From an uncultured Isosphaeraceae bacterium (lineage in GTDB: Bacteria; Planctomycetota; GCA-002687715), in contig CAZDQF010000005.1 in assembly GCA_964507445.1 (NCBI GenBank), forward strand, positions 38,436 through 102,435: a DNA stretch of 64,000 bases, read 5' to 3'. The notes below the pieces were generated by a model, which saw only the letters and a list, made by a program, of their open reading frames with translations, had not been told where the DNA came from and searched no databases. The translations under genes and the position numbers were made by a program. Of this stretch, positions 4,451 to 60,903 are shown one piece after another; the first letter of the stretch is position 1; each line of letters starts with the position of its first letter.

Positions 4451-4549
4451 GGGGTGGTCTTTCTTGATCTGGGCCGAAACCAGCCGAGACAATCGAAGCA
4501 AGCGCAGGCCGTTGGCCCGCACGTACCGGCAGGAGCCGGCAGGAGAAGC

Positions 4550-7300
4550 ATGAGCAGCCAGGGTTTCACATCGCAGGACGCCAAGGTCGATCAGGTCGAT
4601 GGTCCGGCCTGGCACCCAACGCTGCCTGCCCGCCTCGGCCGCTACCGGATCCTCAAGAAGCTGGGCGGCGGCGGCATGGGGGTCGTCCTCCTCGCCCGCG
4701 ACGATCAGCTGGACAGGGACGTGGCCATCAAGGTGGTCCGCCCGGATCAGGCGCTCCTGGATGAACCTCATCCTCGATTTCAGCGAGAGATCGACGCCGT
4801 CGCCCGGCTCCATCACCACGGGATCGCACCCATCCACGACGCGGGGTTCGACGCCGGGCTCTCCTGGTACGCCATGGAGTGGATCCCGGGGTGCACCCTG
4901 TCGGAGCTCGTGAAGGAACTGGGGGCGAGTGACCCCAGGACACTGACCGGTCTCGACGCCCATCGAGCCGTGGCCCAGCTCTCCGCAACCAAGCACCCTC
5001 CCGTGGTCCCGCAGGCGGAGCCGAACGAGCTCTTCGACGGCACATGGGCCACGTTCGCGTTCCGCGTCACCGAGCGCATCGCCGGCACCCTCGATCACGC
5101 CCACGCTCAGGGCACGCTTCATCGGGACGTGAAGCCATCCAACGTCATGATCACGCCCGACGGACGGGTCTTCCTGATCGACTTCGGGCTCGCCATTCAC
5201 GAAGAGCAGGAGACCATCACTCACACCGGCGTAGCGGTCGGATCGCTGCCTTACATGGCGCCCGAACAACTCCAGGGTCTGACCTCAGCCCTGGACGGGA
5301 GGACGGATATCTACGCCCTCGGGGTGACCCTCTATGAGCTCGCCACCCTTCGACAACCGTTCCGTTCGTCCAATGACGAGGCGACCCGCCGACGCATCAT
5401 CCATCAGGACATCCCGCGAGCGCGTGTCCTGAACCCGGACCTCAGCTGGGATCAGGAGACGGTCATCAGCGTGGCCATGGACCCGGTTCCCAGCCGCCGC
5501 TACCGGTCGACCGCCGCAATGGCCTCGGATCTCGCCAACGTCTGCGCCGGCCGGGCCGTGAACGCGCGACGGGCGGCCGCTCACGTCCGGTTGTCCCGCT
5601 GGATACGGATGCACCCCACCGCCACGACGGGTGTAGGCCTGGGCCTCATGACCATCGCAGCCCTGACCTGGGGCCTCGTGCGTGCCAAGGAAGACGCTGA
5701 CAGGATCTCCCGTGCCCTGACCGCCGCAGACAGCGCCCGGGTCGCCGCAGACAGCAGCCGCCTGCAGATGACGGAGCTCATCTCGAGCGAGTTTGAGTTC
5801 CTCAACTCAGGCGACACGGACGGCCGCATCGTGGACCTCGAGGGGATCTACGAGAGCCGGCGCCGGCGACTGGCGAGCCTCGAGCTGTCCCCGGCCGAGA
5901 CCGCCTTCTATCGTTACAACCTGGCCCGCATCGCCAACAGGCTCTCCCGCCATCGGGACGCTCGTGACGACGACGCGACGGCGCTGGCGATCTACCGCGA
6001 GCTCTTCGACGGCGATCACGAGATGATCGCGACCTCCCTCGACAAGCTGGCCAACGACTATCAGTTCCTCGATGACATCGACGCGGCGGAGGCCCTGTGT
6101 GAGGAGTCCCTCGCCATGCGCGCCAGGATGCACGGGGAGGACTCTCTCCCCTACGCTCGGAGCCTCTCCACCCGAGCCGGGATTCAACGCCGGCGCGGCG
6201 ACATCGATCAGGCACATCGGACCTACCAGAGCGTCCTGAAGGTGTATGAACGAGAGCTGGAAGCGGCGTCGTCATCCCGCCATCCCTTGAGCGATGCGCT
6301 GCTCATGAGCCTCAGAGAATCCGCAGGTGAGATCCACCACGGACTTGGGATAACGCTGCTCAGGTCTTCTGATCCTCGGGGCGCCCGGGAGCACTTCGAA
6401 GCAGCTCTGGCGCACTTCGCCAGGTCCCGGGGTGTCCCGGTGGATCAGGCTTCCTGTCAGTATCATCTGGCTATCTGCGCCCGCGTCACGGGCGAACTCG
6501 ACGCGGCCCGCGAGCACCTCGAACAAGCGGCGGAGATCCAACAACGATACCTCGGACCGGATGACATCCTGGCCCACCAGATTTGCAGTGAACGCGGCCA
6601 CGTGGAGTGGGCTGCGGGACGACGCGAAGACTCCGTCACCTTCCTGATGGACGCGGTAGACGGGTTCTCCCGATCGGAGATCGAAGACCGGTCCAAGGCC
6701 CCCGCCACGCGCGTCGTCCTCGCGAGCTACCTCATGAAGATGAACCGTGACGCCGACGCCATCGCGCAGCTGGAGGCGGCGGAGACGGAGGCCGCAGCCG
6801 TCAACGACCCGCTCATCGCAGGCAGCGTCCAGTGGGCGCTCGCGGACATCGCCGAGAAGCTGGGACGGGCCGAGGAGGCGATCCCGAGGAGACGGACCTA
6901 CATCAAGGCTCACGAGCAGTCCCTCGGACGCGACCATGCCCGCGTCATCACCCTCAGGCTGGTTCAGTGCCGCACCCTCGCCCGGTCAGGAGCCACCCAG
7001 GACAGTCGCCGTTGCCTGGAGGGAATCCTGGAGTGGCTGGCAGATCGAGAAGGCGCGCAGGCCCGTCTCGTCACCCGCTCCCTGGGTCCCCTCTACCTGG
7101 CAGACCTCTTCGAAGCGCTGATCGAAGCTGACGACTCCGAGGGCGCCATCAAACTGGCGGTCGAGGTGGCGACCCAGCGCTTCCGCGTTGAACAGCCCAA
7201 TCCGGATGAGCGCCTCGCCTACCTCAGCCGGCTGACCGACATCTTCACCGAAATGGGCGAGGCGCTGATCGCCCGCGAGATCCGCAAGCGCATGCAATGA
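4550..7300 (+). CDS. Ser/Thr protein kinase with C-terminal TPR-like repeat region
   Basis: ATG 4550 with an AGGAGA ribosome-binding site. Kinase motifs GGGGMGVV, AIKVV, HRDVKPSNVM, IDFGLA and APE, then a single transmembrane helix around residue 380 and about 550 aa of helical repeats. The ORF-track start 4433 lies inside the terminator. Confidence 0.85.
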   Translation: MSSQGFTSQDAKVDQVDGPAWHPTLPARLGRYRILKKLGGGGMGVVLLARDDQLDRDVAIKVVRPDQALLDEPHPRFQREIDAVARLHHHGIAPIHDAGFDAGLSWYAMEWIPGCTLSELVKELGASDPRTLTGLDAHRAVAQLSATKHPPVVPQAEPNELFDGTWATFAFRVTERIAGTLDHAHAQGTLHRDVKPSNVMITPDGRVFLIDFGLAIHEEQETITHTGVAVGSLPYMAPEQLQGLTSALDGRTDIYALGVTLYELATLRQPFRSSNDEATRRRIIHQDIPRARVLNPDLSWDQETVISVAMDPVPSRRYRSTAAMASDLANVCAGRAVNARRAAAHVRLSRWIRMHPTATTGVGLGLMTIAALTWGLVRAKEDADRISRALTAADSARVAADSSRLQMTELISSEFEFLNSGDTDGRIVDLEGIYESRRRRLASLELSPAETAFYRYNLARIANRLSRHRDARDDDATALAIYRELFDGDHEMIATSLDKLANDYQFLDDIDAAEALCEESLAMRARMHGEDSLPYARSLSTRAGIQRRRGDIDQAHRTYQSVLKVYERELEAASSSRHPLSDALLMSLRESAGEIHHGLGITLLRSSDPRGAREHFEAALAHFARSRGVPVDQASCQYHLAICARVTGELDAAREHLEQAAEIQQRYLGPDDILAHQICSERGHVEWAAGRREDSVTFLMDAVDGFSRSEIEDRSKAPATRVVLASYLMKMNRDADAIAQLEAAETEAAAVNDPLIAGSVQWALADIAEKLGRAEEAIPRRRTYIKAHEQSLGRDHARVITLRLVQCRTLARSGATQDSRRCLEGILEWLADREGAQARLVTRSLGPLYLADLFEALIEADDSEGAIKLAVEVATQRFRVEQPNPDERLAYLSRLTDIFTEMGEALIAREIRKRMQ

Positions 7301-7319: not shown

Positions 7320-8021
7320 TCACCGCAAGAGGAAGTCCATGCTCGCCCCCGGCTGGAACTCCTCCGGGTCCTGGCCGCGGCGGAACAGCCGCGCGCCACG
7401 CTCACCTTCCAGGCGGACCTCCTCCCCGACGACCCGCAACCACGCCCCCTCTCGCAACCCGACCACGGGGGATTCGTTCATCTCGTGGTACTCACGGATG
7501 CGGTCCTCCCTGGTCTCTCCCTTGTGCCTGGAGTCCGGATCCGGGTCCAGGTAGTGCGGGTTCAACTGAAAGGAGACCAGGCCCAGGGCGTCGAAGGTGG
7601 GGGGCTGCACGATGGGCATGTCGTTGGTGGTCATGATGGTCGTGCAGGCGACGTTCGAGCCGGCGCTGCTGCCCATGTAGGGCATACCCTCGGCGACCCG
7701 CCCCCGGATGGCCTCCACGACCCCCGTCTCATGGAGCCTGGTCAACAAGCGGAAGGTGTTCCCGCCGCCGATGAACATGGCCTCCGCCGTGCGCACCGCC
7801 TCCAGTGGTTCCTCGTGCTCATGGATACCCGAGACCCGCAGCTCCATGGCCTCCAGCCGCTCCCTGACGACCGTCGTGTAGCGATCCAGGTCGTGCAGCG
7901 CCCAGGGGACGAACAACACCGTGTCCACCCCGGCCATGGTCTCGCGGACGGCGTGTTCCACGTGGTCCATGTAGCCGTGACCATGAAAAGCCGAGCTGCT
8001 ATTGAGGAGAAGGTTGCGCAT
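7320..8021 (-). CDS. pepE: dipeptidase E (peptidase S51, alpha-aspartyl dipeptidase)
   Basis: 233 aa with FIGGGNTF and SAGS nucleophile-elbow motifs typical of PepE. ATG at 8021 (plus-strand cat 8019-8021). Confidence 0.8.
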   Translation of the reverse strand: MRNLLLNSSSAFHGHGYMDHVEHAVRETMAGVDTVLFVPWALHDLDRYTTVVRERLEAMELRVSGIHEHEEPLEAVRTAEAMFIGGGNTFRLLTRLHETGVVEAIRGRVAEGMPYMGSSAGSNVACTTIMTTNDMPIVQPPTFDALGLVSFQLNPHYLDPDPDSRHKGETREDRIREYHEMNESPVVGLREGAWLRVVGEEVRLEGERGARLFRRGQDPEEFQPGASMDFLLR

Positions 8022-9243
8022 GGCCCGGTATCATACGCCGGTGAACTCTGGAATATCACCGCCGCTGGCACAGCACTGGGGCCTCGATCCCGAGGTCATC
8101 TTCCTCAACCACGGCTCGTTCGGCGCCTGCCCCCGGCTCGTGCTCGACCGACAGTCCGAGCTGCGCGCGCAGCTCGAGCGCCAGCCGGTGGACTTCTTCG
8201 TCCGCCAGTACTACCCGCTGCTCGACGAAGCGCGGCATGGGTTGGCCACGTTCCTGTCCGCGGACCCCGAGGGGCTGGCCTTCGTCCCCAACGCGACGAC
8301 GGGCGTCAACAGCGTCCTGCGCTCTCTCCAGCTGGGGCCGGATGATTCCCTCCTCGTCTCGAACCACGCCTACAACGCGTGCCGCAACGCGCTGGAGTTC
8401 GTCGCCGGGACGGCCGGAGCCAGCGTCGATGTGGTCGACATCCCGTTCCCCTCCGGCGGCGCCGACGAGGTGGTGTCCGCCATCACCTCCCAGGTCACGG
8501 ACCGCACGAGGCTCCTGCTCATCGATCACGTGACCAGCGCGACGGGGCTCGTGCTGCCGATCCAGCGCATCGTCAGGGAGCTGGAGCCGAGAGGTGTCCA
8601 GGTGTTGGTGGACGGAGCGCACGCGCCGGGCATGATCCCGCTGAGCCTCGACGAGCTGGGCGCCACCTACTACACGGGTAACTGCCACAAGTGGATCTGC
8701 GCACCCAAGGGAGCCGCCTTCCTCTGGGTGTCGAGCCGGGCACGGGACGACGTCCGGCCGGCGACCATCAGCCACGGCGCCAACATGCCGACGGACTCGA
8801 GGACGCGATTCCGCCATGAGTTCGACTGGATGGGGACCGATGATCCCACGGCTTACCTGTGCGTACCGGACGCGCTTCGGGTGATGGAGGGGATGGTGGA
8901 CGGCGGATGGAGCGCCGTCATGGATCGCAACCGCGACCTGGCCCTGGCGGCGCGGCGGATGCTCTCAGAACGGCTGGGGCTGGAGCTCCCCTGCCCTGAC
9001 GACATGATCGGGTCCATCGCCGCCTTGTATCTGCCGGACGGCCCCCATCATCCACCCGCCCCCCTCTACGAGGACCCCCTCCAGAGAACCCTGTGGGACG
9101 AACACCGGATCGAGGTCCCCATCGGCCCCTTCCCGAGCGCGCCCCGGCGTCTCCTGCGGATCTCCGCCCAGCTGTACAACTGCATGGAGCACTACGAGCG
9201 ACTCGCGGACGCCGTTCAGCGCGAACTTCAGACCGGCGACTGA
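8020..9243 (+). CDS. class V aminotransferase-fold PLP enzyme (isopenicillin-N epimerase / cysteine desulfurase-like)
   Basis: FLNHGSFGACP N-terminus, a GNCHKW PLP-lysine motif, and family-level similarity over about 400 aa. Start is uncertain (ATG 8020 or GTG 8041); the 5' end overlaps the pepE start head-to-head. Confidence 0.7.
   Translation: MARYHTPVNSGISPPLAQHWGLDPEVIFLNHGSFGACPRLVLDRQSELRAQLERQPVDFFVRQYYPLLDEARHGLATFLSADPEGLAFVPNATTGVNSVLRSLQLGPDDSLLVSNHAYNACRNALEFVAGTAGASVDVVDIPFPSGGADEVVSAITSQVTDRTRLLLIDHVTSATGLVLPIQRIVRELEPRGVQVLVDGAHAPGMIPLSLDELGATYYTGNCHKWICAPKGAAFLWVSSRARDDVRPATISHGANMPTDSRTRFRHEFDWMGTDDPTAYLCVPDALRVMEGMVDGGWSAVMDRNRDLALAARRMLSERLGLELPCPDDMIGSIAALYLPDGPHHPPAPLYEDPLQRTLWDEHRIEVPIGPFPSAPRRLLRISAQLYNCMEHYERLADAVQRELQTGD
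8022..8036 (-). promoter_or_regulatory. -10-like TATGAT lying 8 nt upstream of the pepE ATG (leaderless-type promoter)
   Basis: Sense-strand sequence is GTATGATACCGGGCC followed by ATG. Part of the recurrent TAnnnT-N6-9-ATG pattern described in findings. Confidence 0.3.
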
Positions 9244-10736: not shown

Positions 10737-10887
10737 GCAGTTCTCCTGGTTGGACCGTGGTTTCTCGCATCTGCCGCTCCGCTCGGGTCACGGGACAGCA
10801 ATAGCACATGGAGCGCCCCAACGGGAGGCCACCTGAGCAGCGTCACAAGCACCTCTACGCCGGGATGAAGGCCCCCGTCTGCGCCGT

Positions 10888-10901
10888 TAGGATGACCCCC
10901 C
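10888..10901 (+). promoter_or_regulatory. -10-like TAGGAT lying 8 nt upstream of the ATG of the giant flavoprotein gene
   Basis: TAGGAT at 10888-10893, then GACCCCCC, then ATG 10902. No Shine-Dalgarno sequence. Same architecture as at pepE, the PhoD-family gene, the HAD gene and the symporter gene. Confidence 0.3.
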
Positions 10902-13900
10902 ATGCCGCGGTCGAACACCAAGGTCCTGATCGTTGGAGGCGGAGCTGCGGGGATCACCGCGGCCATCGGCCTCGCCAAGCGAGACATCCCTGTGGTGGTG
11001 CTCGAGGGCGGCCTCTACGCCGGCGCCGAGAATTGGTCCGGCGCCGTCTACTTCTGTGAGAACCTCGTGCGGCCGGAGATTCTCGGAGAGGACGGCCTCG
11101 CCCAGACGCCCGTAGAGCGCCGCGTCGTCCAACGAGGCCTCCTCGCCTCCGACGGCGAGCTGGCCGTCGGCGCGTCCGTCAGATCCCCCGCCGCCTTCAA
11201 CCACTGCTACACCGTGCTGCGCCCGGTGTTCGACCACGACCTGGCCGAGAAGGCGCGGATTCACGGAGCCGAGATCCTCACCGGCACCACCGCGTTGGCG
11301 CTCCTCAGGGATGGCGACCGGGTCCGCGGGGTGCTCACGGACCGGGGCCCCATCTACGCAGATGTGGTGTTCCTCGCGGAGGGAGACGCCTCCAATCTGG
11401 TGACGCGGGAGGGGCTCGAGACCAAGAACCCTGGGGAGTCCGGGATCGTACGTCCCGAGTTTCTCCAAGGCATCAAGGAGGTGCTGCAGCTACCGGAAGG
11501 AGAGATCGAGAGGCGCTTCGGGGTTCAAGAAGGAGAGGGGGCCTGCTTCGAGATCCTCCTGCGAAATGGCACCGTGAAGGGCGCCACCGCGCCTCTCAAC
11601 GCTGGCGCGTTCCTCTACACCAACCGCGACAGCCTGAGCATCGGTCTCGTCGCACCCCTGCACAACCTCAAGCAGGTGGGCGTACGCCACAACCAGTTGA
11701 TGGAGTGGCTCAAGGGGATGCCCGCGCTCGAGGGGCTGCTGGACGGAGCCCGCCCGGTCTCTTTCGGAGCCAAGCTGATCCGAGGCGGCGGCTTCAAGGA
11801 GATGCCCCGGCTGGCCCTGGACGGGTGCGCCGTAGGAGGAGCAGCCACGGGCATCGGCCTGGACTTCCCCTGCCCCAACTACACCGGCCCCGCCACCTTC
11901 ATGGGGTGGGCGTTCTCGGAAGCGGTGGCCGACATTCTCGATGACGGCGGCGCGTTCACCCGCGAGGCCCTGGAGGCACGCTACGTCGAGACCGTGCAGT
12001 CCAGCTCGTACCTCACCGACGTGCACAGCCTGAAGGACTGGCCCGCCTTCGTCTCCGAAACCCGACACTTCTTCGACACCCAGGTGGACGTCGCCACGGC
12101 CATGGCGGACGCCGCCACGAACCCCGAACGCTCCGGGCACCTGGCCGTCGCGCGCGCCGCCCTCGACGCGACGTCCGGTCATCGCAAGGCGCTCATGGCC
12201 GAGCTCAATCGAGCCGGCGCCGCCCTCGGTTTGACCCGGGGACTCGGCAAGGACATCCTCCTCGCGGTCCCGTGGTGGGTCATCAACTGCGTCATCGGCT
12301 GGTTCCCTCGCAGGACCTCCACGGACGCAACCCTCGTCCCCCACCTGCTCCACGGCGCGGGCGTGACCCGCGAGAGCGCACCCTGGCTGATCCGGTACGT
12401 CCGCTGGATCATGGCCCCGGGTCTGGCGGAAGCTCTCCACCACCTGTATCGCAACGACGGTGCCGCCCTCCCCGAGAAGCTCCGGGCCAGCCGTCGAGCC
12501 CTGCTCAACCGGATCTCCCTGGTTGATCTGGTGCTGGCACCGCTGCTCCTCCTGGTCCTGACGCTCCTCAACCTCGTGGCCAGGCGACGGGAGACGGACC
12601 GGCGGACGGCCCTCGATCAGGTCTCCCCGGAAGTGGATCACGACTCCAAGCTGGCGTGGCTCACCTACCGCAGCGACGAACACACTCACATCCGTTTCCA
12701 CGCCGCCTACGACGAGCATGGACTGCCGGACGACGCCAGCTCCTCCCTCTTCAACGTGTGCCCCGCGTGGGTGTACAAGCAAGAGGACAGCCCCGCGGGG
12801 GACGGGTCCGTAGCGGTGCTCCACGAGAACTGCATCCGCTGCGAGACCTGCTGGCGGGCCGATGATCGACGGGTGGACTGGGGACGCACGCGGGGTCAAC
12901 GCTTGGTCTTCGAGTCCTACACCAGCGCCGACGCCTGGCTCAGGGAGTCCCGGGAGGCAGCGAACCTGGCCCGCGCCGCGCGGGCAGGAACGGCTCAGCC
13001 CATCCCGCCCATCGTGGATCCGGATCCGGTCGCCCTCGACGCCGCCGATCGTGCGGACGCATCCGCAGCCGGCACGCGGATCAGCCGTCACCTTCGGAGC
13101 TTCCGCTCCCTGATGCGACACATGCCGTCGGTCCTCCTCGGGTCGGACCGCAAGCTCCTCGATGCTCTCGGCAGAGAGGTCATCCGAGGAGTGGAGGACC
13201 TCGGCGAAGCGCTGGGCCGACACGACGCCGCGGACCTGAAGTCCCGTCGCGACGCGCTGGCGGGCTGGGTGCGACTCGCCACCGACCACCTGGACACGGA
13301 GCGCTTCTTCCACTTCGAAGCGGATCTGGGCGTGCTGGAGAGCCACCACATGGTGGAGGTTCGTGCGCTCACGGGTGTAGGCCTGTCTCGGCCGCCGCGG
13401 CGCGCCAGCTTCGGCATGGGCGCTCGTCGCGCGGCGCTCCGCGCCCTCCTGGAGCAACGGTTGGATCGCGACACCGTGGCCGCCTGTGAGGCCAGCATGC
13501 AACCGACGGACGACGCTCGCCGAGCCTTGCTGGATGTGGTCGCGGCGCTCTGCGACCCCGATTCCGGTGAACCCGTCGCCCCCGGATCCGTCGCCCGAGA
13601 CGCCGCGTTGGAGGAGATGGCCCGTTTGTCACCCTCCCTGGCTGTGCTCACGGCCGGTCATCTTGCGGTCTGTGACCTGGTCCATCGAGCGGAGACCCCC
13701 GCCCGTCCCGTCCCCGCCCTGTCGGAGGTGCGCGACGATCTGCGCACCGGACGGGTCATCGGAGGCATCCTCCGCGGGGAGTTCTGGCTCAACGACGACG
13801 CCGTGTCCGGACAGAGCGAGGCCTGCCTCCTCGGGGGGCTGGGCGTGCTCGCCCTGCCCACGGGGGATGGCTTCTGCCTGCTCGTTCCGGGCGACGACGG

Positions 13901-18941: not shown

Positions 18942-20473
18942 TTCAGCGCGCTCAGCGGCACACGGAGACGGTGGACACGATCTCCGGCGATGTTGATGAC
19001 CTCGTAGCTGACGCCGGGGTCTTCTCCGCCGGGCTCGAACCGCACGAATCCGAAAGAAGGCGTGGCGTTGTAGGAGAAGAGCGCCCTCTTCATCACCGCG
19101 TGCTTGTGGACGTTGGTCAGCCGGGAGGAGTTGAACTCGTAGATGGGGTATCCACCCGGGCGTTGGTTCAGCCAGGCGTCAGACCGGTGACGGTCAGCGG
19201 AGAGTTGCACCACGCCGGTGATCCTGTGCTCTGAGAGGAAGCGGTAGATCCCTGCCCGTTCCTGGGGATGCCCGTCCCACGTGTCCTTGCTCTTGCCCTT
19301 CGTCCCCGTCGCCCAGGGCACCGGGGAACAGATCACCTTGAACACCGCCTTCGAGTCCTTGAGTCCCTGCTTCAGCCAGCGCAGCTGATGGGGTCCGAGC
19401 ATGGAGCTGGAGCCGTCGCCCTTGGGCCTCTCACGGTACGCCCGTCCGTCGAGCATGAAGAAGTCCACGGCGCCCCAGGAGAAGCTGTACCAGCAACCCG
19501 GCCGCTCCACGCCGCCGCCGTACCCCGGGTTGGCCCAATTCTCGACGAACACATCCCAGACGTCCCGCTTCCACGGTGGGGTGTCCACCGCGGGGCCGCC
19601 CTTGCAGTCGTTGGTGCCGAAGTCGTGATCATCCCAGATGGAGAACGTCGGTACGCGGGCGGTGAGGGCGCGGTAAGGCGGGCTGGCCTGACGACGGTGA
19701 TAGCAGTACCGCTGAACGTCGGGGTGCTTGGGGTGATCGATGTAGACATTGTCCCCCAGGAGCAGCAGCAGGTCCGGGGAGGTCTTGGCGATGGTCGACC
19801 ACATGTGCTCATGCCGTGGCGTGAACCCGGCGCCGCCGCCGAAGGCGAGGGTGAACGCCCCCTTCGAACCGAGGGTCGGAGCCGTTCGGAACGCCAGCAC
19901 AGCAGCGGTCGGCTCTTCTCCGCTGTCAGGCCGCAGATCCACGGTCCCTTCGTAGGCCGTGTCCGACTCCAGGCCCGTCATGTGCAACACCGCGGTGCAA
20001 TCGGAGGCTGGCTCGGTGCGCGCCTCGACCCGGCGCCCCGCGACCGAGAGCACCACCGTGGCGGGGCTGGTGGTCCGGACCCACACCCGCGCATCGTGAG
20101 GACCCACGGCACCCACCATGGGGCCCATGGCGATGCGGGGCGTCTCGCAGAGCTCGGGGTAGCGATCTCGAAGCGGACGCAGCCAATGCTGGAAGGCCAC
20201 GGCCAGTCGCCCCTCGGGGAACCCGAGACGACGCACCCGTTCCACCGCCGCCGCGGCCGCGGCCGGATTCTGCTGCGCCGCCTCGGCGATGGCGACCATG
20301 AACCAGTCTTCAGGGTCATCATCGTTGGCCGCGATACGGCCGCGGAGGGTCTTGAGGGCCACCGCGGGCTTGCCGTCGACGATCTGACGCAACGCGTCAC
20401 GGTGGATCTTCTTGTACTGGCCCTGAGCCGCGAGGCACCCGACCATGGTCAGGAAGATGATGCAGGTTCGCAT
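18935..20473 (-). CDS. PhoD-family alkaline phosphatase / metallophosphatase, secreted
   Basis: IWDDHDFGTND and GDNVYIDH are PhoD-family motifs. Internal ATG 20473 gives the signal peptide MRTCIIFLTMVGCLAAQ; the ORF-track start 20728 is over-extended. The 3' end overlaps the giant gene by 7 nt. Confidence 0.8.
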   Translation of the reverse strand: MRTCIIFLTMVGCLAAQGQYKKIHRDALRQIVDGKPAVALKTLRGRIAANDDDPEDWFMVAIAEAAQQNPAAAAAAVERVRRLGFPEGRLAVAFQHWLRPLRDRYPELCETPRIAMGPMVGAVGPHDARVWVRTTSPATVVLSVAGRRVEARTEPASDCTAVLHMTGLESDTAYEGTVDLRPDSGEEPTAAVLAFRTAPTLGSKGAFTLAFGGGAGFTPRHEHMWSTIAKTSPDLLLLLGDNVYIDHPKHPDVQRYCYHRRQASPPYRALTARVPTFSIWDDHDFGTNDCKGGPAVDTPPWKRDVWDVFVENWANPGYGGGVERPGCWYSFSWGAVDFFMLDGRAYRERPKGDGSSSMLGPHQLRWLKQGLKDSKAVFKVICSPVPWATGTKGKSKDTWDGHPQERAGIYRFLSEHRITGVVQLSADRHRSDAWLNQRPGGYPIYEFNSSRLTNVHKHAVMKRALFSYNATPSFGFVRFEPGGEDPGVSYEVINIAGDRVHRLRVPLSALNY

Positions 20474-20488
20474 GGCCCGGTATCCTAC
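20474..20488 (-). promoter_or_regulatory. -10-like TAGGAT lying 8 nt upstream of the ATG of the PhoD-family gene
   Basis: Sense-strand sequence is GTAGGATACCGGGCC followed by ATG. It shares an identical 16-nt core with the pepE junction. Confidence 0.3.
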
Positions 20489-20492
20489 AGCC

Positions 20493-20843
20493 ATGAACGG
20501 ACTGAGCGCTGAGCAGGTAGCAGAGCTGCGGGCGGACCTGGCGACGCTGCACCAGGAGTTGGAGGCGCTCCTCACCATGGCCGACGACGGCGCCAGGCCC
20601 ATCGAGCTGGAGCAACCCATCGGCCGACTGTCTCGAATGGACGCCATGCAACAGCGAGAGATGGCCATGGCGAACCACGCCGCACACCAACGTCGCCTCA
20701 GTCTGGTGGACGAGGCCGTGGAGGCCATGGAGGACGGGAGCTACGGCCTCTGCGCCAACTGCGACCGGCCCATCGCGTTCAGCCGTCTCAAGGCGCTGCC
20801 GGAGACGATCTCCTGCCTGCCGTGCCAGGAGCGCCTCGAGTAG
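20493..20843 (+). CDS. DksA/TraR-family C4-type zinc-finger protein
   Basis: CANCDRPI...CLPCQE C4 zinc finger at the C-terminus after a coiled-coil region. Start ATG 20493 (MNGLSAEQ); the alternative ATG 20472 overlaps the start of the PhoD-family gene. Confidence 0.7.
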   Translation: MNGLSAEQVAELRADLATLHQELEALLTMADDGARPIELEQPIGRLSRMDAMQQREMAMANHAAHQRRLSLVDEAVEAMEDGSYGLCANCDRPIAFSRLKALPETISCLPCQERLE

Positions 20844-20859: not shown

Positions 20860-21735
20860 TCACCGCCTGCCCGGCCGCAGCACCAGCCACATGCCGAGGA
20901 ACACTCCCGCCGCGGCGATGGAGTTGGCCACGGTCACCGGTTCTCCGTGGATCAGGACCCCCGTGAAGACCACCAACGCCGGCTGCGAGAACGTGTACAC
21001 CGCGGCCGTGGACGCGCTGAGCCGGGTGAGCGCGAAGAGATTCAGCAGGTAACCCAGGATGGTGGGAAAGAGAACGACAAAGCCGAGGGCCCACCACGAC
21101 GCGGCGCTCGCGGCCGCAGGGGCGAGGTCCGCGTCCCAGGACATGATCGGCAGCGACCACAGCGCGAAGAAGAACATCCACGCGGTGACCGCCATGGGGG
21201 GATGTTCTTTGAGCAGAGGCTTGGAGAGGACCAGGTAGACCGAGTACACCAGCATGTTGCTCAGCAGCAGCAGGTCTCCCAGCAGGTGAACGGCGCCCTC
21301 GTGGAAGAGGAGCTGGACGATGGCCACCAGCCCCACGACGATGCCCGCGATCCGCCGCCTGTCGGGCCGCTCCTGCCCCGCGATCAAAGCCACTCCGTAG
21401 GTGAGCGCCGGGATGAGCCCGACCATGAGTCCGGCGTTGGTGATGGGGGCCCGCTTCAGCCCTTCGAGGAAGCAGAACTGGTTCAGCGCGATCCCCATGA
21501 GGGCGGCCAGCTGGATCCGCACCAGGCTACGAAGCGGCGGGATCGCGGCCCCTCGGTGGAGCACGATGGCGATCATCCCCAGCACCAGGGCTCCGGTTCC
21601 GATACGCCAGACCGCCACGGCGGACGGCTCGAACCCCTCGAACGCCATCTTCCCGTAGAGCGGGAACAGGCCGAAGAAGAGCTGCGTGAAGCCGAGCGCC
21701 ACGTGGTGCGGGAGAGTGGAGCCAGCGCTGCCCAT
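20860..21735 (-). CDS. EamA-family (DMT superfamily) transporter
   Basis: 291 aa with about 10 hydrophobic helices and the duplicated EamA architecture. TAGTTT lies 8 nt upstream of the ATG. Confidence 0.7.
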   Translation of the reverse strand: MGSAGSTLPHHVALGFTQLFFGLFPLYGKMAFEGFEPSAVAVWRIGTGALVLGMIAIVLHRGAAIPPLRSLVRIQLAALMGIALNQFCFLEGLKRAPITNAGLMVGLIPALTYGVALIAGQERPDRRRIAGIVVGLVAIVQLLFHEGAVHLLGDLLLLSNMLVYSVYLVLSKPLLKEHPPMAVTAWMFFFALWSLPIMSWDADLAPAAASAASWWALGFVVLFPTILGYLLNLFALTRLSASTAAVYTFSQPALVVFTGVLIHGEPVTVANSIAAAGVFLGMWLVLRPGRR

Positions 21736-21758
21736 GGGCGGCTAAACTACGCCCTCTG

Positions 21759-22553
21759 ATGCCAAGGCACCATGTCGTCATCCTCGCCCTCGCCTTCGTG
21801 GCCGGGTCCTGCGGGCACCCTCCGGCCGTGAACCAGGGTCCATCCGCCGAACCCCGCGGCCTTCAGGTTCGCTCGGGTGTGGTCGGACACAGCGTTGAAG
21901 GTCGGCAGATCCGTTGGGAGGTCTACGGCGACGGGCCCGACGTCTGCATGATCATCGCCACCATTCATGGCAACGAGGCCGCCGGGACGCCGCTCCTCGC
22001 TTCCCTCAAGGCCCACCTGGACGATCACCCCGACCTGCTCGAAGGGCGGTCCCTCGTCCTGGTCCCTGTCGCCAACCCGGACGGCCTGGCCAAAGGGCGG
22101 AGGCACAACGTCAACGGCGTGGACCTCAACCGCAACTTCCCCGCCGACAACTTCCAGGCATCCCGCCGCCACGGCCCCCGCGCCCTCTCCGAGCCCGAAG
22201 CCAGAGCCCTCCGGGACCTCGTCTATCGTCACAACCCCGCTCGCGTGGTCAGCATCCACCAACCCATCGCCTGCATTGACTGGGACGGCCCCGGGGAGGG
22301 GCTGGCCCGGGCCATGTCGGAGCTCTCGGGCCTCGAAGCCAGGCGCATCGGCAGCCGCCCCGGCTCCTTCGGCTCATGGATCGGCGTGGACATGAACCGG
22401 CCCATCATCACCGTCGAGCTGCCCCGATCCGCCGACAGGCTGAGCGAGGAGGCCGCGTGGGATGCGTACGGCAGCATGCTCATCCAGAGCCTCATCTGGC
22501 CACGACGCCTGCAGGTCGTCCCTTACGCACAAGATCAGGAGACCGCACCGTGA
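21759..22553 (+). CDS. M14-family zinc carboxypeptidase / gamma-D-glutamyl-meso-DAP amidase (MpaA-like), lipoprotein
   Basis: HGNEAAG zinc-binding motif, NPDG, and the SIHQ motif of the succinylglutamate-desuccinylase / MpaA group. N-terminal lipoprotein-like signal LALAFVAGSCG. Confidence 0.65.
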   Translation: MPRHHVVILALAFVAGSCGHPPAVNQGPSAEPRGLQVRSGVVGHSVEGRQIRWEVYGDGPDVCMIIATIHGNEAAGTPLLASLKAHLDDHPDLLEGRSLVLVPVANPDGLAKGRRHNVNGVDLNRNFPADNFQASRRHGPRALSEPEARALRDLVYRHNPARVVSIHQPIACIDWDGPGEGLARAMSELSGLEARRIGSRPGSFGSWIGVDMNRPIITVELPRSADRLSEEAAWDAYGSMLIQSLIWPRRLQVVPYAQDQETAP

Positions 22554-23425: not shown

Positions 23426-23962
23426 TCAGAGCCCCATGGAGTCCAGGAGCCCTGCGGGGGTCGTCTCCACGGTCAGCAGTTGACGGGCCTCCGCGCTGAC
23501 AAAGCCCTCCGCCACCAGGTGATCGGCGAGGGACAGCCAGGGTTGGAAGAAGCCCTCCACGTCCAGCACGCCGATAGGGGCGCGCAGCTCGCCCAGCTGC
23601 TTCCAGGTGAGGACCTCGAGCATCTCGTCAAAGGTCCCGTATCCTCCGGGGAGCGCGATGAAGGCCTTGGACTCCGCGATCATCAGCTCTTTTCTCGGCA
23701 TCATCCCGGTGGTCACTTCCATCCGCTGCAGCCCCGGGTGCGCGATCTCCACCGTGTGAAGGAACCCTGGGATCACCCCGAGGACCTGTCCGCCGGCGTC
23801 GAGCACGGCGTCCGCACAGACCCCCATGAGACCGATGGACCCACCCCCGTAGACCAGGTCGTGGCCACGCTCGACGAGGACCCGGCCCAGCTCCACGGCG
23901 GCCGCCTCGAAGGCGGGGCGCGCCCCTTTCTGGGATCCACAGAAGACACAGACGGCTGACAT
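23426..23962 (-). CDS. LOG-family cytokinin riboside 5'-monophosphate phosphoribohydrolase / TIGR00730 protein
   Basis: VYGGGSIGLMG and PGGYGTFDE motifs are characteristic of the LOG family. 178 aa. TACAAT lies 9 nt upstream of the ATG. Confidence 0.75.
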   Translation of the reverse strand: MSAVCVFCGSQKGARPAFEAAAVELGRVLVERGHDLVYGGGSIGLMGVCADAVLDAGGQVLGVIPGFLHTVEIAHPGLQRMEVTTGMMPRKELMIAESKAFIALPGGYGTFDEMLEVLTWKQLGELRAPIGVLDVEGFFQPWLSLADHLVAEGFVSAEARQLLTVETTPAGLLDSMGL

Positions 23963-24020
23963 GGGCGCGGGATTGTAGCCCTGTGGAGCGAGCCCCGATA
24001 GGCTGCCGCTGTGCAGCTTC

Positions 24021-24034
24021 TAGACTGGGTTGTG
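24021..24034 (+). promoter_or_regulatory. -10-like TAGACT lying 8 nt upstream of ATG 24035 of the symporter gene
   Basis: TAGACT, then GGGTTGTG, then ATG. Same leaderless-type architecture. Confidence 0.3.
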
Positions 24035-27904: not shown

Positions 27905-29617
27905 CTACTTGTCTTCTACCAGCGCCGACTCGCGATCCAGCTCTGGCTCCTGCAACGGCGCTGGCTTGGAGCCGCTGTCCCGCAGGGTCTTCAGCAGATC
28001 CCGAGCGAAGCGGATCGGGGTCCCGTAGTTGGCGCCGGTGAAGTTACGGCTGATGGCCGTGTTGATCCCCACCACCATCTGATCCTCATTGAAGACCGGC
28101 CCGCCGCTGCCGCCGTTATAGGTCACCGCGTCGTACACCAACTGCGTGTCGCTCTTGCTGGAGAGCGCACCCTTGGTGAAGACCGGCTCGATGCCCTTCA
28201 TCTGGGTGAGGTTCTTGACCAGGCTGTGATTCGCGTCGTCCGAGCGATTGACCAGGTCCTTGAGGGTGCTGGTGGGCAACTTTTGCATGAGGCCCGAGAG
28301 ACCCTCCGGGTACCCGATGACATACACGTCCATCCCCGCCTCGAGGGAGTTCTTCGGGCCTGACAGCGGGAGCACCGGGAGGTCATCGGGTACCGAGACG
28401 AGCCGGACCACGGCGATGTCCTGGTCCTCATGAACGGTCATGCGCTGCAACGGCACGGGCTCGACGCGCCCCGGAAAACAGGCGATGAACACCTCTCTTA
28501 CGGCCCGGAAGCCGCGGTCCAGGAGCGGTGAGCCGAAGGAGTCGTCTTCGTACCAAGGATCGATGACGTGGCGGTTTGACAGCACCAGCCCCGACTTGTC
28601 GATCAGGAACCCTGAACCGGAGACCCAATCCATGTGCTTGGGCCCTTCGCCACCGAGGGTCACCGGGACCCGAACCTTGGGGTCGGGCTTGCCCGTCTTC
28701 GGATCAATGACCCAGCGGAGGAACTGCTTGCGCTCCGGGTGATAGAAGGAGATCCCGACGTAGATGAAGCAGACGCCGCGGTGATAGTCCTTGTGGATGC
28801 GCTTCGCCGCACCGGCCTGGAGTTCAGCGGCGCTCATGCGGGCGACTACGTCCTGGGTCTTGGTCGAGAGATCCTGCATCTCCGCCTCTCGCTTCTTCGA
28901 TCGAACCGTGAGGCGAGCCAGCTCGTCAGCAATCTCGTCGTCCAGCTTCCTCGCTTGATCGGTCAGGCGCCGCTCCATGTCCTCTCGCTCGACACGGCTC
29001 TGGGTCAGGAGCGCCAGCAACCGATCGCCCTCCTCCTGATCCGCCCGGTGACGCGCGTCCATGACCCGGACGGTCTCCTGGGAATCGAGCATCGTCTTCA
29101 CCAGCACGACCCCCAGTCCGATGATCACGGCCCCCATCACGGTCAGCGCCACCTGGAAACGACGGGTGCTGTTGGCAACGGCCTCCTTGACCAGTTGACG
29201 AGCGAACACGGTCATCCGCGTGGCGCGGGTCGCCCGGGGACGGTCCGCAGAGACCACATCTCGGGCATCCCCCACCATCTGGTGGAAGGTCTTGGTGGGT
29301 CTCCGAGCCTGGGAGAGGCGGAACCGGAACAACGGCCCCTCCTGTCCAAGCCGCACCAGGTCGTTCTGCTGAATGGCCGCTTCCATGACGGGCTCGTCGT
29401 TGAGGAGCACGGGAGCGTCCGTCAGGCTACGGATGAACCAACGGCCCTCCCGGTCCTCGAGCTCCAGGTGCCGCGGCGCCACGGGCCGACGAGCAGAGGG
29501 CGGGATGCGGACCACGCAGTCTCCGTCGGAACCGATGACGACAGGGTTCGCCTGGGGGGTGAGCGTCACTCCCTTGAGGCTCCCGGAGAGGCAGAACAAG
29601 ACCGGATGAACAGGCAT
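27905..29617 (-). CDS. FHA-domain protein with transmembrane helix, coiled-coil and C-terminal trypsin-like (S1) serine protease domain
   Basis: ATG 29617. N-terminal FHA domain (GSDGDCVVRIP...HLELE...RSLTD...GPLFRF), a helix VALTVMGAVIIGLGVVLV, a charged coiled-coil, then a protease domain with NRHV (His), a DIAVV-type Asp and GGSGGPVF (Ser). Confidence 0.7.
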   Translation of the reverse strand: MPVHPVLFCLSGSLKGVTLTPQANPVVIGSDGDCVVRIPPSARRPVAPRHLELEDREGRWFIRSLTDAPVLLNDEPVMEAAIQQNDLVRLGQEGPLFRFRLSQARRPTKTFHQMVGDARDVVSADRPRATRATRMTVFARQLVKEAVANSTRRFQVALTVMGAVIIGLGVVLVKTMLDSQETVRVMDARHRADQEEGDRLLALLTQSRVEREDMERRLTDQARKLDDEIADELARLTVRSKKREAEMQDLSTKTQDVVARMSAAELQAGAAKRIHKDYHRGVCFIYVGISFYHPERKQFLRWVIDPKTGKPDPKVRVPVTLGGEGPKHMDWVSGSGFLIDKSGLVLSNRHVIDPWYEDDSFGSPLLDRGFRAVREVFIACFPGRVEPVPLQRMTVHEDQDIAVVRLVSVPDDLPVLPLSGPKNSLEAGMDVYVIGYPEGLSGLMQKLPTSTLKDLVNRSDDANHSLVKNLTQMKGIEPVFTKGALSSKSDTQLVYDAVTYNGGSGGPVFNEDQMVVGINTAISRNFTGANYGTPIRFARDLLKTLRDSGSKPAPLQEPELDRESALVEDK

Positions 29618-29651
29618 CACCGTCGATGATAGCGAGTGTGGGCGAAAATCG

Positions 29652-31678: not shown

Positions 31679-32569
31679 TTACCGCCCCTTCCCCATGAGA
31701 TCTGCGAGCGCCGCGTCGATGTCCTGGAAGCGGGACCGGAAACCAGACGCGTCCGCCCGCTCAGGCAACACCCGCTGGCTGCCCAGCAGGACCTCCGCCA
31801 CCTCTCCCAACATCAGTCGGATGGCAAACCCGGGCACCGGCAACCAGGAGGGGCGGCCGATGGACCTACCCAGGGCCTGACAGAATCGCTTCATGGTCAC
31901 GGGATTCGGCGAGGTCCCGTTGACGGCGCCCCGGACGTCGTCCTTGTCCATGGCGTGGAGGATCAAGTCCACCAGGTCATCGCCATGAATCCAGCTCATC
32001 CACTGCCTGCCGCTGCCAACCGGGCCCCCCGCGAAGAACCGGAACGGCGGCAACATGGCCTTGATAGCGCCCCCGTCGGGACCGAGGACGACGCCGATGC
32101 GCAACAGGACGGTCCTGACGCCGTGGGACTCCGCCTCCGCTCCGGCCGCCTCCCAGTCCTTGCAGGTGTCCACGAGGAACGCGCCGGAAGGCCCCGGGCC
32201 AGAAGACTCAACCAGCTCTTCGTCGCCACGGTCACCATAGAAGCCGATGGCAGAAGCCTGGATCAGGACCTTGGGACGCGGCTCGTGGGCGAACCGCGCG
32301 ACCAGGTCCCGGGTCAGGTCCACCCGACTGGATCTCATGATCTCCTTCTGGGCTGCGGACCACCTGCGGGCGAACAGGTTCTCGCCGGTCAGGTTGATGA
32401 CCGCATCGGCGTCCAGGGGACCGTCCGTGCAAGGCGCCCAGGTGATCCCGGGGTCCGCGGGGCGATCCGGATTCCTCGTCAGCACGACCACGTGGTCTCC
32501 TCGATCCGCCAACCGGCGGGCCAGGCGCCTGCCGATGAACCCGCTCCCCCCAGCGATGACGACTCTCAT
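31679..32569 (-). CDS. TIGR01777 / YfcH-family NAD-dependent epimerase (with DUF1731 C-terminus)
   Basis: MRVVIAGGSGFIGRRL Rossmann N-terminus. The length and C-terminal region match the SDR-family YfcH epimerases. Confidence 0.75.
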   Translation of the reverse strand: MRVVIAGGSGFIGRRLARRLADRGDHVVVLTRNPDRPADPGITWAPCTDGPLDADAVINLTGENLFARRWSAAQKEIMRSSRVDLTRDLVARFAHEPRPKVLIQASAIGFYGDRGDEELVESSGPGPSGAFLVDTCKDWEAAGAEAESHGVRTVLLRIGVVLGPDGGAIKAMLPPFRFFAGGPVGSGRQWMSWIHGDDLVDLILHAMDKDDVRGAVNGTSPNPVTMKRFCQALGRSIGRPSWLPVPGFAIRLMLGEVAEVLLGSQRVLPERADASGFRSRFQDIDAALADLMGKGR

Positions 32570-32606
32570 GATCGAGATGATAGCGATCCGAGGTCGGGGC
32601 GTTACC

Positions 32607-33842: not shown

Positions 33843-33973
33843 CCTCCCTGTCGGCGTCGCAAACCTGCTGAAGCCAACGGGTTCTCCCATGCCCTCTTTG
33901 CCCGGGAAGATATCCCCGGTGGCGCTCGTCTCAACCACCATGGCGCCAGGGTGCGCCTGAACGGAGACGACCC

Positions 33974-38847: not shown

Positions 38848-38896
38848 GGGGCACGAGTATAGGCCCGTCTTCGCCGAGACGCCTTACAATGCCGCC

Positions 38897-40939: not shown

Positions 40940-40995
40940 GGAGACCCCGGCGCTCCGCGAGGACGGGGCACGTCCCCTGCGCTATCCTCTGGCCC

Positions 40996-42522
40996 ATGTG
41001 GTCGGACATCGGCATCGGAATCGGCGTCGTCCTGGCGATCGTGGCCATCCGCGATCTCCTCCAGAAGAAGCACGCCATCATCCGGAACTTCCCGGTGATC
41101 GGTCACTTCCGCTACATGATCGAGGCCATCGGGCCCGAGTTGCGGCAGTACATCGTCGCCAAGAACGACGAAGAGCGCCCCTTCTCCCGGGATCAGCGCC
41201 GCTGGGTCTACACCTCATCCAAGAAGCAGAACAACTACTTCGGGTTCGGCACGGACAACGACCTCGAGACGGCTCCGGGGCACATCATCCTGAGGCACAG
41301 CGCCTTCCCCGTCGCACCGGCGGCCCCCGACGATCAGCTCCACCTGATCCCTTGCGCCAAGGTCATGGGCGGCGCCCGTGGTCGGGCCAAGGCGTTCAGG
41401 CCAGACAGCGTCTTCTCCGTCTCGGCCATGAGCTTCGGCAGCCTCTCCGCCAACGCGGTGCAGGCCCTCAACCGCGGCTGCGCCGAGTCCCGCTCCCTGC
41501 ACAACACCGGCGAGGGCGGCATCAGCGAGCATCACCGCAAGGGCGCCGGGCTCATCTACCAGCTCGGCACCGGGTACTTCGGCGCCCGGGCTCCCGACGG
41601 GACCTTCTCCATGGATCGGTTCCTGGAGACCGTCGCCTCCGCGGACGTCCGCGCCGTGGAGGTGAAGCTGAGCCAGGGGGCCAAGCCAGGCAAGGGCGGC
41701 GTCCTTCCGGCGGCCAAGGTCACCCCGGAGATCGCTCGCACCCGCGGCATCCCCGTGGGCGAGGCATGCCTGAGCCCCGCCCATCACACGGCGTTCCAGG
41801 ACTCCTCCGGCCTCCTGGACTTCGTTGAAGAGCTCGCGGAGCGCACGGGCATCCCCGTGGGCATCAAGTCCGCGGTCGGCGACATCGGCTTCTTCGAGGA
41901 GCTGGCCCACCAGATGGAGACCACGGGCCGCGGCGTGGACTTCATCCAGATCGACGGCAGCGAAGGCGGCACCGGGGCCGCCCCCCTCGCGTTCACGGAC
42001 CACGTCTCCATGCCGTTCAAGCTGGGATTCACCCAGGTCTGGCGGACGTTCGCGGAGCGCGGCATCCAGGACGACGTGGTGTGGATCGGATCAGGGAAGC
42101 TGGGCTTCCCCGCCCCCGCCTGCCTCGCCTTCTCCCTCGGTTGCGACATGATCGGCATGGCACGGGAACCCATGCTCGCCATCGGCTGCATCCAGGCTCA
42201 GCAGTGCCACACGGGGCACTGCCCCACCGGAGTCGCGACACAGGGCAAGTGGCTCATGCGCGGCCTCGACCCCACCCACAAGGCCTACCGCATGGCCAAC
42301 TTCATGGTCACGCTGCGCAAGGAGACCCTGGAGTTGTGCCACGCCATGGGAGCGGAGCACCCGGGGCTCCTGAGCCCCGATCAGTTTGCCATCCTGGACG
42401 ACCGCTTCGGATCCAACTCCGCCGACACGATGTTCTCCTATGAACCAGGGTGGGGCCATCCAGCGGAGGGCCTTCGAGACGAGCTGGTGACCCTCATGAA
42501 ACGAGACGCTGATGTCGCCTGA
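40996..42522 (+). CDS. FMN-binding glutamate synthase-family protein (GltB domain-2-like, COG0069)
   Basis: N-terminal membrane helix, then the FMN/Fe-S glutamate-synthase central-domain fold: SAMSFGSLS, NTGEGG, KLSQGAKPGKGGVLP, GIKSAVGD, IDGSEGGTGAAP. Confidence 0.75.
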   Translation: MWSDIGIGIGVVLAIVAIRDLLQKKHAIIRNFPVIGHFRYMIEAIGPELRQYIVAKNDEERPFSRDQRRWVYTSSKKQNNYFGFGTDNDLETAPGHIILRHSAFPVAPAAPDDQLHLIPCAKVMGGARGRAKAFRPDSVFSVSAMSFGSLSANAVQALNRGCAESRSLHNTGEGGISEHHRKGAGLIYQLGTGYFGARAPDGTFSMDRFLETVASADVRAVEVKLSQGAKPGKGGVLPAAKVTPEIARTRGIPVGEACLSPAHHTAFQDSSGLLDFVEELAERTGIPVGIKSAVGDIGFFEELAHQMETTGRGVDFIQIDGSEGGTGAAPLAFTDHVSMPFKLGFTQVWRTFAERGIQDDVVWIGSGKLGFPAPACLAFSLGCDMIGMAREPMLAIGCIQAQQCHTGHCPTGVATQGKWLMRGLDPTHKAYRMANFMVTLRKETLELCHAMGAEHPGLLSPDQFAILDDRFGSNSADTMFSYEPGWGHPAEGLRDELVTLMKRDADVA

Positions 42523-55133: not shown

Positions 55134-55134
55134 G

Positions 55135-60891: not shown

Positions 60892-60903
60892 TAGGATGCC
60901 GCC
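60892..60903 (+). promoter_or_regulatory. -10-like TAGGAT lying 6 nt upstream of the HAD-hydrolase ATG
   Basis: TAGGAT at 60892-60897, then GCCGCC, then ATG 60904. Confidence 0.3.

Follow-up and report, generated by a model that had tools for sequence, protein, structure and literature searches.

Promoter-like TAnnnT hexamers before start codons and the probable use of leaderless mRNAs in an uncultured marine Planctomycetota bacterium

In a 64,000-nucleotide stretch from an uncultured Isosphaeraceae bacterium (Planctomycetota; assembly GCA_964507445.1, contig CAZDQF010000005.1, positions 38,436 to 102,435; hereafter the window), many start codons are preceded at a short distance by a hexamer of the form TAnnnT, as in TAGGAT-N8-ATG before the gene of a giant flavoprotein. 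Our analyses suggest that these hexamers are very probably the -10 boxes of sigma-70-family promoters, which would produce leaderless mRNAs (leaders of 0-3 nt) in coexistence with genes led by Shine-Dalgarno (SD) sites. Leaderless transcription had already been proposed in a first-pass annotation of the window, and the proposal is supported here by the spacing of the motif, its position before unit-leading genes, the depletion of SD sites and the conservation among orthologs. The mechanism is a known one in a new lineage; its interest is modest and lies mainly in the annotation of start codons in metagenome-assembled genomes (MAGs) and in the turnover of initiation modes.

The window has a G+C content of 65-70%, and its sequence recurs unchanged within JGI Ga0105000_1000038 (JGI 3300007511), a marine metagenome contig of 211 kb that is also present in the SUTE22-1 assemblies. 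The genes called on this contig and on near-identical contigs provided an independent gene map, and the sequence was extended along the same contig by 2.7 kb to the left and 7.6 kb to the right (about 74 kb in total); the gene set used below comprises the 48 genes of the window and of these additional 10 kb. The gene content of the window, with kinase-FGE-sulfatase fusions, sulfatases, extracytoplasmic function (ECF) sigma factors and Laminin_G_3/PQQ proteins, fits the assignment to Planctomycetota. The nearest genomes in a species-representative collection are the marine MAGs CPC9 (NYSS01) and ARS1434 (NZBC01), both named Planctomycetota bacterium, with LOG proteins that share 74% and 63% identity, respectively, with the one in the window, and the synteny of CPC9 with the window spans the interval from the giant gene to the symporter gene. 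Rfam and tRNA scans of the window gave no match; thus, no known leader RNA bears on the leaderless question.

Spacing and enrichment of the hexamer

The ten TAnnnT-N6-9-ATG sites listed in the first-pass annotation are all present in the sequence exactly as listed, and printing the 45 nt upstream of every called start added six or seven others (Table 1). The claim that at least ten gene starts carry the motif is thereby confirmed and extended: the hexamer begins between -16 and -12 in 18 of the 48 genes, while 0.65 would be expected from the remaining positions between -80 and +80 (Poisson, 3e-20). The motif count at starts, which had been suggested as a genome-wide check, is far above background in this gene set.

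A search for TANNNT-N(k)-ATG on both strands of the window, with k from 0 to 30 and independent of any annotation, peaked at k = 8 with 11 matches, seven of which are called gene starts. The matches for k = 6-9 sum to 20, and the other values of k have about 1.2 each. In 100 dinucleotide-preserving shuffles the N8 arrangement occurred 2.16±1.33 times and reached 11 in none, and in 300 dinucleotide shuffles the N6-9 arrangement occurred 8.7±2.8 times with a maximum of 18. As a calibration, the same profile was positive on actinobacterial loci and negative on loci from Pseudomonas, Planctopirus and Gemmataceae. The loci of the two relatives (41 kb from CPC9 and ARS1434) gave 12 matches with 4.2 expected, and the giant-gene loci of more distant relatives (L094-L101), a sample too small for the purpose, showed no spacing peak. 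Enrichment was seen in the 74 kb of this genome and in the 41 kb of its relatives, and the other Planctomycetota loci sampled carried no signal.

Among the aligned sites, the bases T1, A2 and T6 are invariant, which are those recognised by sigma-70-type factors (PMC10268837), and the middle of the hexamer is degenerate; when 19 candidates were aligned on the hexamer, a G was frequent 2 nt upstream of it. The spacers of the 18 sites measure 6 nt (six sites), 7 nt (two), 8 nt (six), 9 nt (three) and 10 nt (one). They are rich in pyrimidines, for example GACCCCCC and AGCCGCCC, so that few if any purines available for initiation precede the A of the ATG. A C stands directly before the ATG in 13 of the 18 motif genes; this is not a specific feature, since 20 of the 30 other genes have a C there too.

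The window contains 103 TANNNT hexamers on both strands, and no TATAAT; 35 of the 103 fall in intergenic DNA, which makes up 4.4% of the sequence. The scarcity of the hexamer within genes may reflect selection against spurious -10 boxes.

Operon position and Shine-Dalgarno complementarity

Divergently oriented genes must head a transcription unit, and the motif was found before 15 of the 22 divergent genes and before only 3 of the 25 co-directional ones (Fisher, 1e-4). The distinction between operon-first and internal position is the criterion by which GeneMarkS-2 separates group C promoters from group B ribosome sites (PMC6028130). The sole motif at an overlapping co-directional junction, that of the GATase-esterase gene, lies within the 3' end of the HAD gene and may represent an internal promoter or have arisen by chance.

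SD sites are depleted at the motif genes. The median energy of the duplex with the anti-SD sequence is -2.85 kcal/mol for the motif genes, -6.25 kcal/mol for the other genes and -3.8 kcal/mol for random 18-mers (motif versus other genes, p = 4e-4). A duplex of -5.5 kcal/mol or stronger is present in 63% of the genes without the motif and in only 2 of the 18 with it, both of which pair through the hexamer region. The earlier statement that the TAnnnT starts lack an SD site is thus borne out, their median being weaker than that of random 18-mers. At the seven starts labelled SD-led in Table 1, in turn, the duplex amounts to -5.8 to -11.6 kcal/mol. The GGAG-type sites previously noted at the kinase, nagZ and sulfatase genes are indeed present, and that of murQ (GGGAGCACTG-GTG) exists only when the gene is read from GTG 1391. 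These observations support the coexistence of two initiation modes, with TAnnnT at most leading genes and GGAG-type sites elsewhere.

Unit-leading genes with an SD site also carry a TANNNT hexamer, 17-65 nt upstream of the start and with the SD site in between. The predicted leaders would accordingly fall into two peaks, of 0-3 nt or of at least 10 nt.

Conservation among orthologs

The orthologous loci of CPC9 and ARS1434 encode proteins that are 50-80% identical to those of the window (62-80% for CPC9). Within these loci, the hexamer is kept at N6-N10 before the PhoD, DksA, EamA, M14, LOG, pepE, aminotransferase and symporter genes, and it stays while the spacers and flanks diverge (Table 1). 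The giant gene extends the comparison to metagenome contigs: an ortholog with 81% identity (L105) has TAGGAT-N8-ATG and one with 67% identity (L092) has TAGGAT-N6-ATG. In orthologs of 49-61% identity the hexamer is replaced by GGAGG or AGGAAGGA, 7-12 nt ahead of the ATG. Similarly, the LOG orthologs of Planctopirus and of a Gemmataceae MAG have an SD-like AAGAAGG or GAGGA in place of the hexamer. Switches of orthologs between leaderless and SD-led modes were described by Zheng et al. 2011 (PMC3160421), and the giant and LOG genes offer a concrete case for studying such an exchange in a phylum where only low SD usage is known. Operon position, weak anti-SD pairing, conservation and the replacement by GGAGG in distant orthologs all support the view that the motif would act as a promoter rather than as a ribosome signal.

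The giant gene encodes a single chain with an N-terminal FAD/Rossmann oxidoreductase, acyl-CoA dehydrogenase N, M and C domains (residues ~1386-1892) and an electron transfer flavoprotein (ETF)-alpha FAD-binding domain (2539-2623), and its orthologs are found on many metagenome contigs. The fusion of an enzyme to its own electron acceptor at this scale is unusual.

Overlapping hexamers in short divergent spacers

In three divergent pairs, pepE/aminotransferase, PhoD/DksA and EamA/M14, the two hexamers overlap by 5 bp within an intergenic spacer of 19-23 bp, and each hexamer has its A(-11) base-paired with the T(-7) of its partner. This geometry is conserved in CPC9, where the pepE/aminotransferase starts are at 5721 (-) and 5741 (+) of locus L013. 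Such overlapping -10 boxes would constitute a bidirectional promoter with room for one polymerase at a time. The same -11A/-7T pairing defines the bidirectional promoters of Warman et al. 2021 (summarised in PMC10268837 and PMC12825309), whose transcription starts are 7-25 bp apart with a mode of 18 bp; the start codons considered here are 20-24 bp apart. In contrast to those promoters, both products would here be leaderless mRNAs of annotated protein genes, and a spacer of 19-23 bp would hold two promoters together with two translation starts. The modules imply mutually exclusive binding of polymerase, for example at PhoD/DksA-TraR, and may represent a testable minimal regulatory architecture.

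The 5' regions of pepE (8005-8045, minus strand) and of the PhoD-family gene (20457-20497, minus strand) additionally share TA(T/G)GATACCGGGCCATGCG, with 29 of 41 positions identical. The similarity beyond the hexamer is not kept in CPC9, where only T-A-n-n-n-T persists.

Proposed mechanism and alternative explanations

In the mechanism that we consider very probable, TAnnnT would be the -10 element of a promoter of the housekeeping sigma factor (sigma-70 family); RNA polymerase would open this box and initiate either on the A of the start codon or 1-3 nt upstream. Transcripts made in this way would lack both a 5' leader and an SD site, and ribosomes loaded with initiator tRNA would presumably recognise their 5'-terminal AUG or GUG directly, as they do in Actinobacteria and Deinococcus. 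The mode would apply to about two thirds of the unit-leading genes (15 of 22), and the operon-internal and remaining leading genes would use GGAG-type sites.

Several points weigh against this mechanism. The mRNA 5' ends are deduced from sequence, and the data set is small, with 74 kb from one genome plus 41 kb from two relatives. The motif also played a part in choosing three of the 18 starts; the gene callers' starts alone give 16. In addition, neither the alignment of the 19 candidates nor a scan for E. coli-type promoters (TTGACA-17-TATAAT) revealed a convincing -35 element; the scan found nothing at the focal site of the giant gene, and only the promoter of the trypsin-like protease gene among the candidates, which has a -35-like CTGACG 18 nt upstream. 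We therefore make no claim of a -35 element, which is usually undetectable at such promoters in high-GC bacteria. Finally, the N6-7 spacers match the canonical distance of transcription starts, 6-7 nt, but the commonest spacer is 8 nt; many transcripts may thus carry 1-2 nt ahead of the AUG, unless the polymerase picks the first purine after a C-rich discriminator.

This last point leads to the possibility that the boxes are genuine but mostly yield leaders of 1-3 nt from N8-N10, with a translation efficiency that could differ between N6-7 and N8-10. We regard such near-leaderless transcripts as a real though minor possibility. Of the 18 sites, 10 have N8-N10 spacers, whereas transcription canonically begins 7 nt past the hexamer (PMC10268837). 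The M14 gene has kept its N10 spacer in two genomes, and efficient translation of very short leaders has been reported for D. deserti (PMC4007540). On the other hand, the pyrimidine-rich spacers leave the A of the ATG as the first or nearly the first purine, and published surveys count leaders of up to 5 nt as leaderless, which makes this a refinement of leaderless transcription rather than a true rival to it.

A different reading is that the hexamer is a non-SD translation signal on leadered mRNAs, AT-rich and unstructured or bound by ribosomal protein S1 as in GeneMarkS-2 group B, with promoters further upstream. The hexamer does occupy the place expected of a ribosome-binding site, Planctomycetes are low in SD use, and a 'leaderless and/or S1' bias was suggested for them (PMC5397173, PMC10783764). 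However, a translation signal should also precede operon-internal genes, where the motif is rare; the pattern is T-A-n-n-n-T and not a general AT-rich patch, and the same class of hexamer stands upstream of the SD site in leadered genes; in the divergent spacers of 19-23 bp, an upstream promoter would need to lie inside the neighbouring gene. We consider this reading quite unlikely. Shared transcription factor sites in the short palindromic spacers (CCGGTATCCTAC, CCGGTATCATAC), instead of or besides promoters, are very unlikely: three spacers are partly palindromic and the pepE and PhoD 5' regions resemble each other, but that resemblance is reduced to the T-A-n-n-n-T positions in CPC9, and the giant gene, LOG, GluSyn, HAD, SGL and most other sites are non-palindromic beyond the hexamer. 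It is scarcely credible that the motif arose by chance or from annotation, with starts chosen for the motif or the TA contributed by upstream TAA or TAG stops. The gene callers disagree on several starts in the window, and three starts were reassigned in this analysis, but the spacing profile, which uses no annotation, and the comparison with shuffles both reveal the peak, the motif is kept in diverged orthologous loci, and Pfam domain boundaries confirm the starts. A stop-codon origin of the hexamer was itself rejected, as the hexamer most often begins at -14, which is not in the reading frame of the gene.

Comparison with known leaderless systems

Leaderless genes of Actinobacteria and Deinococcus-Thermus are distinguished by a TAnnnT some 10 nt ahead of the start codon (PMC2238952, PMC3160421). 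This hexamer is a recognised leaderless signature in high-GC bacteria (PMC3160421, PMC6028130), with support from differential RNA sequencing in Deinococcus deserti (PMC4007540). The genes described here resemble these TA-led genes, or group C of GeneMarkS-2, in the TAnnnT pattern with an uninformative middle 6-8 nt before the start, in the restriction to operon-first genes with SD sites elsewhere, and in the weak or absent -35 element (PMC3160421, PMC6028130). They differ in the modal spacer (8 nt here, 6-7 nt in group C), in the host, an uncultured marine Planctomycetota lineage, and in the share of leading genes, which at 15 of 22 in this small sample is above the 25-50% of operons that are leaderless in group C genomes (PMC6028130). 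Archaeal leaderless transcription (group D) has the same fixed short distance between promoter and start and likewise no SD site, but relies on a TATA box and B recognition element (BRE) about 26 nt upstream, rather than on a bacterial -10 box about 10 nt upstream. Group B genomes (Bacteroidetes, Cyanobacteria) are also low in SD use and have a non-SD motif near the start; theirs, however, precedes leading and internal genes alike, whereas that described here is mostly found at leading genes, with GGAG sites elsewhere.

In Planctomycetes, only about 46-48% of genes use an SD site (PMC10783764), a compositional bias described as 'leaderless and/or S1' was suggested (PMC5397173), and the sole planctomycete genome in ProTISA was classed as 'atypical only' (PMC2238952). 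The phylum is absent from the groups listed with leaderless genes in a 2011 survey (PMC3160421) and is not mentioned in the main text of the GeneMarkS-2 paper or in its preprint, and a literature search on leaderless mRNAs and on the mapping of transcription starts in Planctomycetes yielded general surveys only. On balance, we lean towards the hypothesis that the leaderless mode is dominant for leading genes in one uncultured marine Planctomycetota lineage, comprising this genome, CPC9 and ARS1434, and has replaced SD-led starts within the phylum, as distant orthologs keep GGAGG and the Planctopirus and Gemmataceae loci are without the signal. In the small samples of other Planctomycetota loci, the trait appears specific to this lineage. 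If this is true, a Gram-negative lineage of the Planctomycetes-Verrucomicrobia-Chlamydiae (PVC) group would become one of the few bacterial groups known to be rich in leaderless genes, including 19-bp modules that would make two leaderless mRNAs.

Support for and correction of start codons

The start codons of several motif genes are fixed by features of their own. The start of the giant gene at 10902 is established by a Rossmann FAD motif (VLIVGGGAAG) from residues 6-8, and an in-frame TGA lies at 10893-10895. Position 1 of the Peptidase_S51 profile corresponds to residue 4 of pepE, and position 8 of the SLOG profile to residue 9 of LOG. Position 1 of the Epimerase profile falls on residue 3 (MRVVIAGG...) of the epimerase, which argues for the start giving 296 aa and not for the call of 270 aa. 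Several motif genes have in-frame stops 2-3 codons upstream of their starts, among them the HAD gene with a stop three codons upstream of ATG 60904. The protein read from ATG 38897 begins with MIRFALPVLIACLLSPQVPAQ, a typical signal peptide, and this start, which the first-pass annotation had chosen, is thus favoured over the gene callers' 38834 and 38846, which overlap the divergent gene.

The first-pass annotation had placed the start of the symporter gene at ATG 24035. The TAGACT-N8 motif is present there, but the codon is probably internal, as a start equivalent to GTG 24011 and the N-terminus x-Q/E-x-x-DWVV are conserved in three genomes; most likely the gene starts at GTG 24011. Likewise, the aminotransferase gene most likely starts at GTG 8041, as in CPC9, and not at the called ATG 8020, and murQ starts at GTG 1391 behind GGGAG.

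The public gene calls conflict or appear wrong at six starts (8020/8041, 24011/24035, 1321/1391/1438, 38834/38846/38897, 22550/22568 and 32491/32569). Judged by orthologs, domain boundaries and the -10 or SD context, the favoured starts are GTG 8041, GTG 24011, GTG 1391, ATG 38897, GTG 22550 and ATG 32569, respectively. Gene callers tuned to SD sites misplace starts in genomes of this kind, and no fewer than five calls in the window are inconsistent or wrong. These are resolved by a -10 rule combined with orthologs, which is of use for MAG protein catalogues, the prediction of signal peptides and heterologous expression.

Table 1. Hexamer-led and SD-led starts in and next to the window, with the hexamers of orthologs in CPC9 (L013) and ARS1434 (L014)
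Gene or feature	Strand	Site	Positions	CPC9	ARS1434	Remark
Giant flavoprotein gene (2679 aa, 10902-18941)	+	TAGGAT-N8-ATG 10902	hexamer 10888-10893; focal site 10888..10904			C-rich 8-nt spacer
pepE	-	TATGAT-N8-ATG 8021	hexamer 8035-8030; pair region 8019..8043	TATGAT-N8	TATCAT-N9
Class-V aminotransferase	+	TATCAT-N6-GTG 8041	hexamer 8029-8034			not in first-pass list
pepE/aminotransferase pair		TATCAT/TATGAT	8029-8035			spacer 19 bp; start codons 20 bp apart
PhoD-family gene	-	TAGGAT-N8-ATG 20473	hexamer 20487-20482; pair region 20471..20495	TAGGAT-N9
DksA/TraR zinc-finger gene	+	TATCCT-N6-ATG 20493	hexamer 20481-20486	TATCCT-N7		not in first-pass list
PhoD/DksA pair		TATCCT/TAGGAT	20481-20487			spacer 19 bp; start codons 20 bp apart
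EamA gene	-	TAGTTT-N8-ATG 21735	hexamer 21749-21744; pair region 21733..21761	TAGCCT-N8
M14 peptidase	+	TAAACT-N10-ATG 21759	hexamer 21743-21748	TAGGCT-N10		not in first-pass list
EamA/M14 pair		TAAACT/TAGTTT	21743-21749			spacer 23 bp; start codons 24 bp apart
LOG gene	-	TACAAT-N9-ATG 23962	23960..23977	TACAAT-N8	TATGAT-N8
SSF-GDSL symporter gene	+	TAGGCT-N6-GTG 24011	23999..24013	TAGGCT-N6-GTG	TATGGT-N7-ATG	probable true start
Symporter frame, internal ATG	+	TAGACT-N8-ATG 24035	hexamer 24021-24026			first-pass start; inside frame from GTG 24011
Trypsin-like protease	-	TATCAT-N8-ATG 29617	29615..29631			not in first-pass list
Epimerase	-	TATCAT-N7-ATG 32569	32567..32582			not in first-pass list
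SMP-30/gluconolactonase gene	-	TATACT-N8-ATG 38847	38845..38861
Gene called as 701 aa (680 aa from ATG 38897)	+	TACAAT-N6-ATG 38897	38885..38899
Glu_synthase-domain gene	+	TATCCT-N7-ATG 40996	40983..40998
HAD hydrolase gene	+	TAGGAT-N6-ATG 60904	60892..60906
GATase-esterase gene	+	TATCAT-N9-ATG 61647	61632..61649			not in first-pass list
SDR/symporter pair		TAnnnT-type sites as in window	starts 65887/65924			just beyond window
Kinase-TPR gene	+	GGCAGGAGAAGC-ATG 4550	4533..4552			SD-led
nagZ	-	SD-led	start 10736
murQ		SD-led	GTG 1391			hexamer at N65
Sulfatase		SD-led	start 49747			hexamer at N23
Glycosyltransferase	-	SD-led	start 57269
Sigma factor	-	SD-led	start 48123			hexamer at N28
Sigma factor	-	SD-led	start 55731
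223-aa gene		SD-bearing leading gene				hexamer at N17
Second aminotransferase		SD-bearing leading gene				hexamer at N19

Other observations

Two of the SD-led starts belong to sigma factor genes. The region 52503-55731 (minus strand) contains an ECF-type sigma factor gene and, after a gap of 1 nt downstream, a gene for a Ser/Thr kinase-FGE-sulfatase fusion of 876 aa, and a second sigma-like gene lies at 47470-48123. The GATase-esterase gene (61647-63656, plus strand) encodes a 669-aa protein in which a class-I glutamine amidotransferase domain is joined to a glucuronoyl esterase domain of the fungal type, and its start overlaps the stop of the HAD gene (ATGA).

In the intergenic region between the GDPD and DUF309 genes (~33780-33934, minus strand), TTGAGA-16-TATCTT is the sole full E. 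coli-like promoter besides that of the trypsin gene; downstream of it, AAAGAGGG-N1-ATG begins a minus-strand reading frame that is not annotated and extends into the 3' end of the GDPD gene. Beyond the right end of the window by 3.8 kb, at 67775-67807 in window numbering (L010, 16873-16905), TAGGAT-N10 precedes a 10-codon upstream open reading frame, MDSPARNDVS, whose TGA overlaps the ATG of an NTP_transf_3 gene (ATGA) that has only a weak SD site of its own. This short frame may be a leaderless upstream open reading frame coupled to the NTP_transf_3 gene.

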